From UHGV virus genome UHGV-1593002: DNA of 17,928 nucleotides; one strand, 5' to 3'. The DNA comes from a virus. Made by a program: the position numbers and the translations under genes. Within the stretch, counting starts at the first letter, position 1. Every line of letters begins with the position of its first letter. The notes below the pieces were generated by a model. That model saw nothing but the letters and a program-made list of their open reading frames with translations, was not told the origin of the DNA and made no database searches. This document shows, in pieces, positions 14,727-17,320 of the stretch.

Positions 14727-14752
<26 letters not shown>

Positions 14753-15272
14753 TCAGCAACCCCGGTATCAGTTCATCCAGCGCGGCTGCTTTGTTCATGG
14801 CTTTGATAATATCCCGTTTCAGGAAATCAACATGTCGGTTTTCCAGTTCCGGAAAACGCCGCTGCACCGACAGGGGGAGCCCGTCGAGAATACTGGCAAT
14901 TTCACCTGCGATCCGCGACAACACGAAAGTACAGAATGCGGTTTCCACCACTTCAGCGGAGTCTCTGGCATTCTTCAGTTCCTGTGCGTCGGCCTGCGCA
15001 CGCGTAAGTCGATGGCGTTCGTACTCAATAGTTCCTGGCTGGAGATCTGCCTCGCTGGCCTGCCGCAGTTCTTCAACCTCCCGGCGCAGCTTTTCGTTCT
15101 CAATTTCAGCATCCCTTTCGGCATACCATTTTATGACGGCGGCAGAGTCATAAAGCACCTCATTACCCTTGCCACCGCCTCGCAGAACGGGCATTCCCTG
15201 TTCCTGCCAGTTCTGAATGGTACGGATACTCGCACCGAAAATGTCAGCCAGCTGCTTTTTGTTGACTTCCAT
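14727..15272 (-). CDS. Nu1: Terminase small subunit Nu1 (lambda gpNu1-like), 181 aa
   Basis: 181-aa ORF starting MEVNKKQLADIFGASIRTIQNWQEQGMPV (winged-HTH N-terminus), immediately downstream of cosB. Confidence 0.95.
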
Positions 15273-15660: not shown

Positions 15661-15894
15661 ATGTCAACGAAGAACAGAACCCGCAGAACAACAATCCGCA
15701 ACATCCGCTTTCCTAACCAAATGATTGAACAAATTAACATCGCTCTTGATCAAAAAGGGTCCGGGAATTTCTCAGCCTGGGTCATTGAAGCCTGCCGCCG
15801 GAGACTGTGCTCAGAAAAAAGAGTTTCTCCTGAAGCAAACAAAGAAAAGAGTGACATTACTGAATTGCTCAGAAAACAGATCAGACCAGATTGA
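15661..15894 (+). CDS. ylcI: Ribbon-helix-helix DNA-binding protein, YlcI/YnfO (DUF3950)-like, 77 aa
   Basis: MSTKNRTRRTTIRNIRFPNQMIEQINIALDQKGSGNFSAWVIEACRRRL fits an RHH fold (beta strand TIRNIRF, helix NQMIEQINIALDQ, turn GSGN, helix FSAWVIEACRRRL) and matches my recollection of the DLP12 prophage protein YlcI, which lies next to the Nu1 homologue nohD. Confidence 0.65.
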   Translation: MSTKNRTRRTTIRNIRFPNQMIEQINIALDQKGSGNFSAWVIEACRRRLCSEKRVSPEANKEKSDITELLRKQIRPD

Positions 15895-15950
15895 AGCAAT
15901 TTAGATAATCGTGCAGACTACGCCCCTCATATCACATGGAAGGTACCACA

Positions 15951-16361
15951 ATGGCTCAGGTTGCCATTTTTAAACAAATATTCGATAAAGTGCGAAATAA
16001 TTTAAACTATCACTGGTTTTATTCTGAACTAAAACGTCACAATGTCTCACATTACATTTACTATTTAGCTACAGAGAATATTCATCTTGTTCTTGAAAAC
16101 GATAATACGGTTTTAATAAAAGGACAGGGTAAGGTTGTAAATGTAAGATTTTCAAAAAATAAATGCCTTATAGAAGCCACCTTAAAAGGATTCAAATCAG
16201 GAGAGTTATCATTTTACGAATACAGGAAAAATCTTGCTACAGCAGGGGTTTTCAGATGGATTACAAATATCCACGAAAACAAAAGGTATTACTATACCTT
16301 TGATAATTCATTACTCTTTACTGAGAACATTCAGAACACTACACAAATATTTCCGCACTAA
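15951..16361 (+). CDS. Hypothetical prophage moron protein, candidate DUF1398 (YbcV/YdfO-like), 136 aa from the second ATG
   Basis: ORF 15936-16361; the second ATG at 15951 has GGAAGG 7 nt upstream. Markedly AT-rich compared with the late genes; 56 nt downstream of the YlcI-like gene on the same strand. Family assignment is from memory and unverified. Confidence 0.55.
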
Positions 16362-16406: not shown

Positions 16407-16571
16407 ATGATGAAATATGTGTACCCGGTAACCCCGGTGTGCATCGTTTTTGATTATTCCCGCACACTCGCGCAGAAGGAGTTCCCCGTCGGGCTACGGT
16501 CTCTGTTAATACGGGAATACGGCGACGATACAGCGCATGATGTGTCAGGCTTGAATACCTTTATCCTTTAA
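16407..16571 (+). CDS. Hypothetical small ORF, 54 aa (MMKYVYPVTPVCIVFDYSRTLAQKEFPVGLRSLLIREYGDDTAHDVSGLNTFIL)
   Basis: Uninterrupted 55-codon frame with ATG start, found by hand (below the ORF-track length cut-off); lies between a perfect 8-bp hairpin (16372-16399) and a plus-strand terminator; no convincing RBS. Confidence 0.2.
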   Translation: MMKYVYPVTPVCIVFDYSRTLAQKEFPVGLRSLLIREYGDDTAHDVSGLNTFIL

Positions 16572-16617
16572 AAGGGATATCAGTTAAGTTATCCCGTGTA
16601 GGGTATAAACCATTATC

Positions 16618-16647
16618 AAAGCCACTCTGTAGGAAGTGGCTTTTGTA
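16618..16647 (+). terminator. Putative rho-independent terminator (plus strand)
   Basis: AAAGCCAC - 10-nt loop - GTGGCTTT stem followed by TTTTGTAAT; no T-run on the opposite strand. Confidence 0.5.
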
Positions 16648-16650
16648 ATG

Positions 16651-16680
16651 GCAATAAAAAGCCCCGCGAATGCGAGGCTA
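16651..16680 (-). terminator. Putative rho-independent terminator (minus strand)
   Basis: Minus strand AGCCTCGC-ATTC-GCGGGGCT (8-bp stem with one G-U pair, 4-nt loop) followed by TTTTTATT; about 27 nt downstream of the small ORF that follows Rz. Confidence 0.6.
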
Positions 16681-16706
16681 AATCCTGGTATTTGTAATGA
16701 CTGGTT

Positions 16707-16856
16707 CTTATCTCAACGCAGCCCCTTACCGCGCGCAAAATGCTCAATATCAAGCATCAGCAATGAGATGTTTAATCTGGATTCACTCCAGAAGTGAGCA
16801 CCACCCTGTCTACAGAGCCAGATGTGAAGGATGATGAGTAAAATTATCGCTATCAT
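16707..16856 (-). CDS. Hypothetical small protein, 49 aa, hydrophobic N-terminus ([47 protein letters not shown])
   Basis: ATG overlaps the Rz TGA stop in an ATGA arrangement (translational coupling); ORF is followed by the minus-strand terminator; found by hand, not on the ORF track. Confidence 0.3.
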
Positions 16857-17320
16857 CGAAGGCATTGCGTCCTGATGTATTCCTGAAGCGTTCTCAGTGC
16901 TGTTTGGTCGCGGATAATTCCGTCCCGGATACCGAGAACGTTTCGTCCAGCAACTGGAGAGAGTTCGACGGTGGCATCATTGCCCATGCCGGAGGCGCTG
17001 GAGGTTTCGGCTGAGGATGGCACAGGGCATTTTCCTTTGACGAGCACCCGACCACCATTATCAAGCTTGCGCCGAAGAGCATCATTTTCAGCTTTCGCAT
17101 CAGCTAACTCCTTCGTGTATTTATCATCGAGTGCATCAGCATCACGCTGGCGCTGCTGCATGTCAGTAATGGTGGCGTTCGCCTTCTCCAGTTCACTGGC
17201 CTTGTTATCACGCTGTTCTTTGTAGGCGATTGCATTATCACGGTAATGATTAACAGCCCATGACAGGCAGACGATGATGCAGATAACCAGAGCGGAGATA
17301 ATCGCGGTTACCCTGCTCAT
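16853..17320 (-). CDS. Rz: i-spanin Rz, 155 aa from the ATG at 17320
   Basis: N-terminal TM anchor ([26 protein letters not shown]) followed by a charged coiled-coil-like region; ATG overlaps the endolysin TGA stop (ATGA); contains the embedded Rz1 frame. The ORF-track start at 17332 is a GTG and was rejected. Confidence 0.85.
16894..17100 (-). CDS. Rz1: o-spanin Rz1 (outer-membrane lipoprotein), embedded in the +1 frame of Rz, 68 aa
   Basis: [21 protein letters not shown] contains a signal-peptidase II lipobox (VVGC); Pro-rich mature region ([16 protein letters not shown]); entirely inside Rz in a different frame. Confidence 0.8.

Follow-up and report, generated by a model that had tools for sequence, protein, structure and literature searches.

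The locus and its genes

The window is the whole stretch of DNA that was analysed, 17,928 nucleotides of the virus genome UHGV-1593002. It represents a lambda-like E. coli prophage that is read on its reverse strand, with the gene order RrrD, Rz/Rz1, small ORF, two plus-strand genes, Nu1/NohD and then the head genes. RrrD, in the lysis cassette, is a SAR-type lysozyme (PF00959). The large terminase subunit, the portal and other head genes are located on the minus strand and, along with Nu1, downstream of the small ORF. The genes and translation signals of this region are as follows.

Rz: 16853..17320, minus strand; i-spanin gene of 155 aa, assigned by a profile match to phrog_13 ('Rz-like spanin').
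Rz1: 16894..17100, minus strand; o-spanin frame inside Rz with the lipobox MVVGC, assigned from sequence and context.
Shine-Dalgarno-like AGGA: 16870..16873, minus strand; 4 nt 5' of ATG 16865.
Small ORF: 16713..16865, minus strand; 50 aa from the start ATG 16865, assigned from sequence, phrog_11822 and RefSeq WP_001139678.1.
Alternative start: ATG 16856-16854, minus strand; in frame, three codons 3' of ATG 16865, giving 47 aa.
ATGA overlap: 16853..16856, minus strand; internal ATG of the small ORF sharing nucleotides with the Rz stop TGA (16855-16853), read from the sequence.
Stop of the small ORF: TGA 16715-16713, minus strand, read from the sequence.
DUF1398 gene: 15936-16361, plus strand.
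YlcI/YnfO-like gene: 15661-15894, plus strand.
Nu1/NohD: 14727-15272, minus strand.

The original prediction, made from the letters of the window, had an ATG overlapping the Rz stop codon as ATGA, and we confirmed this on the minus strand at 16856-16853. The overlap is a possible termination-reinitiation coupling site. PGAP, in turn, sets the start of the small ORF at ATG 16865. Two predicted measures had to be corrected: the low end had been put at 16707, 6 nt off the actual stop, and the length at 49 codons, where the frame has 47 sense codons from the ATGA start (50 from ATG 16865). Dozens of ORFs of 47-50 codons are present within the same 2.9 kb. The length of the small ORF alone is within chance, and therefore the question of whether it is a gene is decided by comparison with its relatives.

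Relative to K-12 DLP12, homology is lost from 17073 to 16537. In that stretch, DLP12 has another Rz allele, represented by its 3' half, and, on the opposite strand, borD; the window has the 3' half of the resident Rz there, followed by the small ORF and the hairpins. A bor remnant was rejected, as no homology to the K-12 bor region was found. Lambda is absent from the 47 phage records matching the small ORF, which, together with the opposite-strand bor in the DLP12 slot, agrees with the predicted lack of a lambda counterpart. The last ~36 nt of Rz (to ~16888) and the small ORF move together as a single mosaic unit, and mosaic joints are located at ~16888, 16691 and ~16654.

Annotation, family and distribution

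The small ORF had been taken as unannotated. It is, however, an already annotated and catalogued gene (PHROG 11822). The identical sequence is contained in RefSeq as hypothetical protein WP_001139678.1 (PGAP), and the same gene is known as gene 65 in Shigella phage Sf6, gp67 in Salmonella phage epsilon34 and a hypothetical protein in phage Ayreon. In HK620 and CUS-3, the sequence is present without a gene call. The match to phrog_11822 ('unknown function') has E = 1.8e-36 and aligns residues 1-50 with positions 1-50 of the 50-position profile. Klebsiella and Kluyvera orthologues also match this profile (E = 5.4e-11 and 1.3e-6, respectively). Searches of Pfam, NCBIfam, PADLOC and the PDB gave no match to the small protein beyond one chance alignment in Pfam (see below).

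Of 5426 complete E. coli genomes, 2570 contain a 341-nt block consisting of the ORF, both hairpins and short flanks, and 1482, about a quarter of all, contain it at full length. Model phages that have the sequence are Sf6, HK620, CUS-3 and epsilon34. A blastn match in Klebsiella phages led to a 45-aa ORF, MLILFILLSIWLCRLSEKPGWFKVSHIISMLALEDEHPARGKGLR, directly after their Rz, and further divergent copies were gathered by protein and genome searches. These orthologues (~44-58% identity) are from Klebsiella, Raoultella, Kluyvera, Citrobacter and Phytobacter, including Citrobacter pasteurii and K. grimontii.

A HMMER profile search of 1.84 billion representative proteins returned 27 clusters only, and these are 44-50 aa peptides of one architecture or fusion artefacts caused by read-through, stop-loss or frameshift. 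Among the longer matches was the unrelated repeat protein P0095. As no larger relative exists among the 1.84 billion proteins, the small ORF is not a fragment of a larger gene, and the suggestion of a gene remnant was dropped.

Literature searches for ECs0822, WP_001139678, phrog_11822, NP_958239 and genes downstream of Rz/spanin returned nothing on the family, nor were translation data for it (ribosome profiling, mass spectrometry, tagged product) found in the literature. The small-protein study of Weaver et al. names rzoD/rzpD only, and the epsilon34 genome paper does not discuss gp67.

Coding capacity and selection

The 25 proteins from Escherichia, Klebsiella, Raoultella and Kluyvera that we compared align without a gap. 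Their invariant and near-invariant residues cluster in an N-terminal I-W-L-C-R and a C-terminal A-R-x-K-G-L-R. In ten divergent DNA sequences, the ORF frame is free of stops (10/10); four of the five other frames have 1-6 stops in each of the ten. Substitutions were counted along the minimum spanning tree of 31 unique ORFs, and the 282 inferred substitutions created one stop, with ~11 expected. Among copies of the E. coli clade, no genuine indel was found in the 141-nt ORF, as against four distinct ones in the adjoining 33-nt spacer. The codons used for the invariant Arg are AGA, CGA and CGG.

The helix codons 2-14 have a synonymous excess (omega ~0.44, binomial p = 5e-4). This test is not circular because the sequences had been anchored on the C-terminus; for the same reason, the omega of ~0.28 for codons 37-45 is biased by the way the sequences were collected. 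Codons 15-36 have omega ~1.3, and the middle of the small protein evolves neutrally. For the whole ORF, omega is ~0.85 (~1 within the E. coli clade), and selection on the small protein is weak overall.

Of 67 unique viral contigs anchored on the terminator, 61 have an intact ORF. A second scan of viral contigs was anchored on the C-terminal codons and is blind to the state of the remaining ORF; here, 31 of 33 unique sequences have it intact. Substitutions in these 67 terminator-anchored sequences fall on first, second and third codon positions in the ratio 5:5:9, and roughly three quarters of them are amino-acid replacements. The intact frames of close relatives are not very informative, as these sequences share 94-100% identity. 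Degraded copies were also found: a TAG in L127, W13 changed to a stop in L034, and stop-loss extensions up to 106 aa. In phage SEN22, an IS element lies between Rz and the ORF, and the first 14 nt of the ORF are lost. GAGGT or AGGTGA is placed 3-5 nt ahead of the ATG in most divergent upstream contexts.

Following the frame through homologous prophages gave no refutation, as it is kept across genera. With the gapless alignment, the deficit of stops and indels and the synonymous excess in the helix, the original prediction of a genuine gene stood. The small ORF is thus very likely a protein-coding gene in which the N-terminal helix and the C-terminal tail are constrained and the linker evolves freely. 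The database call 'hypothetical protein, 50 aa' is probably correct and worth keeping in the annotation.

Conservation is seen at the nucleotide level, too. The third positions of CTC in TGG-CTC-TGT and of TCA in ATC-TCA never vary, and conservation continues for 10 nt past the stop, which argues for a nucleotide-level constraint beyond coding.

Properties of the encoded protein

The N-terminal 13-15 residues have a Kyte-Doolittle mean of 2.9-3.1. For the window protein, the mean is 2.95 over 15 residues, and the N-terminus is strongly hydrophobic, just as had been noted. The hydrophobic segment comprises 18 residues with the 16865 start; it begins at the initiator Met without a preceding charge and is ended by an invariant Arg. 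A fast-evolving linker of ~20 residues follows and leads to the conserved basic C-terminus EH-x-AR-G/S-KGLR, with a net charge of the tail of +2 to +4. The summed Hessa scale is negative only in windows of 13-17 residues. AlphaFold predicts one long helix with a pLDDT of 82-84 for residues 1-20 and low confidence past residue 20. The hydrophobic helix is short for a full membrane span. By the positive-inside rule, the protein would be an N-out/C-in membrane anchor, albeit one with a segment short of full span. A related solved structure was not found in the PDB. We compared the protein with the following classes.

Lipoprotein or Rz1-like o-spanin: The lipobox L-[AS]-[GA]-C is not present. In I-W-L-C-R, Leu is at position -1 of the Cys, and some orthologues have W, Y or F in place of the Cys. 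This class was rejected.

Holin: No Pfam holin family matches at E ≤ 10, and the sole Pfam match is a chance one to DUF998. The PHROG search gave phrog_11822 only, plus a weak 'transglycosylase' match (E = 0.04). The protein is not assigned to the holins.

Hok/Gef type I toxin: PF01848 does not match at E ≤ 10, and there is no plus-strand promoter-like site over the ORF; the plus-strand promoter-like sites of the region all point away from it. This class was rejected as well.

Defence protein: As PADLOC gave no match, this assignment was not retained.

Terminator T, stem-loop H and the post-stop motif

Four elements follow the stop codon of the small ORF.

Post-stop motif: 16703..16712, minus strand; GATAAGAACC (consensus GATAAGAGCC), non-coding and nearly invariant across genera.
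First CATTACAAA copy: 16691..16699, minus strand; homology to Sf6/mEp213-type phages stops exactly here.
Terminator T: 16651..16679, minus strand; stem-loop AGCCTCGC-ATTC-GCGGGGCT (16679-16660) plus TTTTATTGC, assigned by folding and annotated in epsilon34 and Ayreon.
Stem-loop H: 16611..16650, minus strand; CATTA, internal loop, AAGCCACT...AGTGGCTT, TAATG, assigned by folding and covariation.

T: The sequence AGCCTCGCATTCGCGGGGCT plus TTTTATT begins 33 nt after the stop of the small ORF and forms a stem of 8 bp (6 G-C pairs) with a 4-nt loop ahead of the TTTTATT. It is present in both the MFE and the centroid fold (z = -4.5 for the 121-nt region). By its G+C-rich stem-loop and U-run, T is predicted to be an intrinsic (Rho-independent) terminator. 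The same-strand hairpin with U-run described in the original prediction was thus located at 16679-16660; its distance from the stop had been underestimated at ~27 nt. In the Klebsiella-type loci L157, L158 and L169, the T stem also follows the ORF, with differing loops. T is absent from Sf6, mEp213 and most Klebsiella-type loci, which have H instead. T is not a fixed partner of the small ORF.

H: The general form of H is CATTA, an internal loop, AAGCYNNN...NNNRGCTT and TAATG. In 18 distinct sequences, 98.5% of the cells are paired, and five pairs are changed on both sides. The covariation score was reached by none of 500 shuffles, and slid controls gave 36-50% pairing. Three positions have U-G pairs that would be A-C mismatches if read on the other strand. 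These data give good support to H as a sense-strand RNA structure. The H variant of the window is perfectly Watson-Crick, and its plus strand continues with TTTTGT; therefore, H can also terminate the convergent plus-strand genes.

Combination of T and H: All 159 anchored loci have T and/or H after the stop (T only in 56, H only in 44, both in 59), but these proportions are not population estimates because the first set of loci was selected on T. In the window, T is part of a 49-nt unit (16699-16651). The unit opens with CATTACAAA, a second copy of which follows directly after the unit; the window contains no further copy. Because homology to Sf6/mEp213-type phages ends at the first copy, this is a mosaic joint, and the 49-nt unit looks like the junction of two versions of one boundary.

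Post-stop motif: The conservation of the 10-nt GATAAGAGCC is not explained by coding. Its reverse complement, GGCTCTTATC, resembles the boxA of lambda. A boxA/nut-like reading was rejected, since the strand and the order relative to the hairpin are wrong. A GATAAT after the hairpin was likewise rejected as a promoter, as no acceptable -35 is seen by eye at 16-18 nt.

Known RNAs: Rfam 15 gave no match at the gathering thresholds over the whole window. A hit to STnc560 (20.6 bits, threshold 55) is a chance alignment to the two hairpins; STnc560 is the MgrR locus, ydeI/ydeE in Salmonella (PMC2515195). The match to mir-458 is below threshold and corresponds to the H hairpin on the plus strand. The EHEC anti-sRNAs EcOnc01-03/AsxR/AgvB were discarded because they are encoded elsewhere than after Rz, namely downstream of PR' beside a moron CDS (PMC4104026), and svsR was discarded because it is located in cI (PMC12803456). 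A preprint on the Pas sRNA does not mention lysis genes.

Lambdoid late genes are expressed as a single Q-antiterminated transcript, and the head genes of the window are downstream of T on the same strand. We therefore infer that the late transcript reads through T in lytic growth. T and H would then not be where late transcription has to end. More probably, polymerase that lacks the Q modification is halted by them where the late genes meet the convergent genes expressed in the prophage. H might, in addition, serve in RNA processing or stabilisation.

The block could be conserved mainly as an RNA or DNA element, either as a folded 3' part of the lysis mRNA or as a 'boundary sequence' for recombination at a mosaic joint, and the peptide would then be functionless, its frame tolerated or weakly selected. 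The conservation running beyond the stop into GATAAGAGCC, the invariant degenerate positions of CTC and TCA, the clear covariation in H, the three mosaic joints and the omega of ~1 in mid-ORF and within the E. coli clade all agree with such an element. RNAalifold predicts a helix between AUCUCA of the ORF and UGAGAU across the stop, with no compensatory changes, and places two hairpins in the C-terminal coding part, where the variable sites are G-U to A-U. A structured non-coding RNA, however, would gather indels and stops, and none are present in 135 nt at ~30% nucleotide divergence, next to a spacer with several indels. Neither the synonymous excess in the helix region nor the Shine-Dalgarno sequence and ATG that are re-created in unrelated upstream contexts is expected of such an element, and apart from a few in weak 5' hairpins, no convincing double compensatory pair occurs inside the ORF. 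We therefore regard an RNA or DNA element without a functional peptide as unlikely, and take it that some RNA-level constraint overlies the coding sequence.

Position in the lysis cassette and expression

In all contexts seen, the small gene sits at the 3' end of the lysis cassette. It follows the Rz of PHROG 13 in the E. coli, Sf6 and Klebsiella types, the unrelated Rz of PHROG 312 in Kluyvera L136, and a separate o-spanin lipoprotein of PHROG 1275 in L160/L135. The three spanin families (13, 312 and 1275) are mutually unrelated. In L139, the preceding gene is an extra one of 94 aa that follows Rz, and in L146, it is a 58-aa membrane protein (phrog_8494) in a cassette with a LydA holin and a GH108 endolysin. 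Cassettes carrying the small gene include at least three endolysin types (SAR-type lysozyme, lambda-R-like and GH108) and three holin families. As the endolysins and holins vary in this way, no specific lysis partner stands out for the small gene.

In none of the contexts is the start of the small gene more than ~10 nt from the stop of the gene before it. A consensus scan of 16866-17300 on the minus strand found no sigma-70-like promoter between Rz and the small ORF. As the start abuts the preceding stop and no promoter-like site is present, the simplest reading is that the small gene is expressed as the last cistron among the late lysis genes. The placement directly after Rz, together with the translation signals, makes it the last gene of the lysis cassette. 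The original prediction of a terminal gene of the lysis transcript is therefore right for the cassette, but not for the transcript, as the head genes follow downstream on the same strand.

A small membrane protein in this slot could also serve the prophage or block competitors, for example by superinfection exclusion or as a Hok-like toxin carried as a moron with its own terminator. The size of ~50 aa, the hydrophobic N-terminal helix and the charged tail resemble type I toxins and small exclusion proteins, the fast-evolving linker is like that of arms-race proteins, and a terminator or hairpin follows the ORF at all loci. The slot is the one taken by the lysogenic-conversion gene bor in lambda and DLP12. 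However, there is no promoter-like site upstream on the same strand, so that the gene was rejected as a moron in spite of its terminator, and the start is placed at most ~10 nt after the stop of mutually unrelated late genes, which makes a shared internal promoter unlikely. Moreover, neither Hok/Gef nor any other Pfam family nor PADLOC matches, and an antisense promoter over the ORF is missing. A role in exclusion or as a toxin is hence quite improbable.

A functionless remnant or chance ORF, kept by recent recombinational spread of the block, would fit the 94-100% identity of most E. coli, Shigella and Salmonella copies and the degraded ones (L127, L034, the stop-loss forms to 106 aa and SEN22), but it appears largely refuted by cross-genus conservation, as orthologues from other genera, at 45-58% identity, have retained the frame with its start and length and the conservation at both termini, and no larger parent is found among the 1.84 billion representatives, so we give it next to no weight.

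Proposed role of the small protein

Our favoured explanation, which we consider probable, is that the small ORF is a real gene for a late-expressed inner-membrane peptide with an accessory role. The gene would share its transcript, which starts at the Q-antiterminated late promoter, with S, R and Rz/Rz1 and would be translated from its own AGGA and ATG (16865), or by reinitiation at ATGA (16856). The peptide would most likely insert in the inner membrane with the N-terminus out and the basic tail in the cytoplasm. Both this topology and the time of expression are deduced from the properties of the segment and the gene order. Late in infection, the peptide may act as a non-essential accessory membrane factor, e.g., by modulating the triggering of the holin, the spanins or events at the membrane, and its action would be independent of any particular holin or endolysin type. 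At the junction of the late operon and the convergent prophage genes, T and H would stop polymerase not modified by Q and may stabilise 3' ends, and Q-modified polymerase would pass both to the head genes.

Lysis by lambda needs S, R, Rz and Rz1 alone. As lambda does not have the small gene and SEN22 has it disrupted by an IS element, any role in lysis is dispensable or accessory. That the peptide acts in lysis at all is a tentative suggestion, for which the position of the gene is the basis.

A further-reaching and rather doubtful reading is that phrog_11822 represents an unrecognised fifth component of the lysis cassette, i.e., a spanin-coupled inner-membrane peptide that modulates the last steps of lysis, together with a conserved regulatory or processing stem-loop at the mRNA 3' end. 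The modulated steps may be holin triggering, membrane depolarisation or spanin activation. If this is true, the component was overlooked because lambda is without it.

Lambdoid lysis is described with four genes, for holin, endolysin, i-spanin and o-spanin (PMC2629481). In many phages of Escherichia, Shigella, Salmonella, Klebsiella, Kluyvera and Citrobacter, a further small and apparently coding gene ends the lysis cassette. If its peptide influences the timing of lysis or events at the membrane, a textbook pathway would gain a component. If it has no role in lysis, it would still illustrate well how a small phage membrane peptide can evolve fast, and its surroundings how RNA hairpins are conserved at a mosaic junction. 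The family is widespread and present in model phages.

Comparison with known systems

Bor: Lambda Bor and DLP12 BorD share the slot between Rz and the packaging genes with the small ORF, and the breakpoints of DLP12 homology bracket this swap. The small ORF has the orientation of the late operon and directly adjoins Rz. In contrast, bor runs in the opposite direction under its own promoter and encodes a 97-aa lipoprotein without sequence similarity to the small protein.

Morons: In the passages of PMC4104026 and PMC2629481 that cite Juhala et al. 2000 for the moron concept, morons are defined by their own promoter and prophage expression. The small ORF is like lambdoid morons in being an extra gene in some related phages, at a fixed slot and with a terminator after it. 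It differs in that no promoter was found and the start abuts the preceding late gene.

Hok/Gef type I toxins: These have ~50 aa, an N-terminal transmembrane helix with a polar tail, and a conserved structure near the mRNA 3' end, and the small ORF is similar in its size, its predicted membrane helix and tail, and its mRNA. It lies, however, inside the late operon behind another gene and is not a stand-alone locus.

Accessory lysis proteins: Short accessory membrane proteins of phage lysis cassettes include the antiholins S107 of lambda and LydB of P1, and gp25 ('releasin') of Mu. The small protein resembles them as a short, presumably membrane-anchored, probably non-essential and modulatory product of a lysis cassette. 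It has no sequence relationship to such proteins, and its gene occurs with more than one type of holin and endolysin.

Sf6 gene 65, epsilon34 gp67 and WP_001139678.1: These belong to the same PHROG and have the same position after Rz as the window ORF. The same terminator follows gp67 in epsilon34, and the window protein is identical to WP_001139678.1. Nothing of substance differs between Sf6 gene 65 or epsilon34 gp67, both entered as 'hypothetical protein' calls, and the small ORF of the window.

Sequence elements 3′ of the small ORF

The sequence behind the small ORF, the membrane-peptide gene (phrog_11822) that directly follows Rz, contains the following elements in the window:

16703-16712, minus strand: post-stop 10-nt motif GATAAGAACC, consensus GATAAGAGCC
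16691-16699 and 16642-16650, minus strand: repeat CATTACAAA, two copies
16611-16650, minus strand: extended RNA stem-loop H, arranged as CATTA, internal loop, 10-bp upper stem and TAATG

Post-stop motif: The 10 nt directly 3′ of the stop codon are non-coding, yet near-invariant across the E. coli, Kluyvera and Klebsiella copies. AGAGCC of this motif is complementary to GGCTCT, which is invariant within the small ORF (codons W-L-C).

Stem-loop H: This structure lies downstream of the small ORF and is conserved in phages from several genera; it was also located in locus L126 (approximately 2070-2110), in L136 (Kluyvera), L135 and L139, and in Sf6 (L004). Compensatory changes are present, and its U-G pairs are valid on the late-transcript strand only. 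Most versions are devoid of a U-run, and it corresponds to no Rfam family. H may serve as a processing site, stabilise the 3′ end or terminate transcription weakly.

Repeat: The window has exactly two copies of CATTACAAA, spaced at a period of 49 nt, and the intrinsic terminator T is located between them. Homology to Sf6/mEp213-type phages stops at the first copy. The arrangement resembles a joint at which recombination has brought together two versions of a module boundary.

Neighbouring frames

16894-17100, minus strand: Rz1 o-spanin frame embedded in Rz, lipobox LIMVVGC
16407-16571, plus strand: 54-aa ORF MMKYVYPVTPVCIVFDY..., downstream of the DUF1398 gene

In RefSeq record NZ_CP033401.1, Rz1 is not annotated, and "lysis protein" is the sole entry at this locus. 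The 54-aa ORF has no match in PHROG and may be non-coding; at the DNA level it shares 83% identity with the region between bor and ybcV in the K-12 prophage DLP12, an intergenic stretch that carries no annotation.

Variation of the small ORF among phages

L128 (Salmonella phage SEN22), 285-1432: IS/transposon insertion between Rz and the small ORF
L127 (Klebsiella phage ST13-OXA48phi12.5), 1920-2057: decayed small ORF, in-frame TAG at codon 36
L139 (Kluyvera sichuanensis prophage), 1445-1729: 94-aa gene between Rz and the small ORF
L146 (IMG/VR contig 2667528069_000002), 3680-4940: differing lysis cassette, last gene phrog_11822

The SEN22 insertion deletes the first 14 nt of the small ORF; hence, if SEN22 is viable, the gene is dispensable. 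In the Klebsiella phage, the Rz upstream of the decayed copy is broken or replaced, and an annotated Rz1 lies 400 nt downstream. Loss of the stop codon (TGA to TTA) extends the small ORF to 106 aa in the IMG/VR E. coli-type contigs L051, L075, L087 and L107, where the frame crosses the terminator region into the sequence downstream. This loss is recurrent (four unique sequences, six contigs).

The product of the 94-aa gene in the Kluyvera prophage has ...KMQEACMWACRAV as its C-terminus and aligns with the last third of phrog_717, a family of unknown function. Its position shows that the slot directly 5′ of the small ORF can take insertions.

The L146 cassette, in which neither Rz nor Rz1 is recognisable, encodes a LydA-type holin, an endolysin with GH108 and PG_binding_3 domains and a 58-aa two-helix membrane protein (phrog_8494). 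The latter might stand in for a spanin or work together with the holin.
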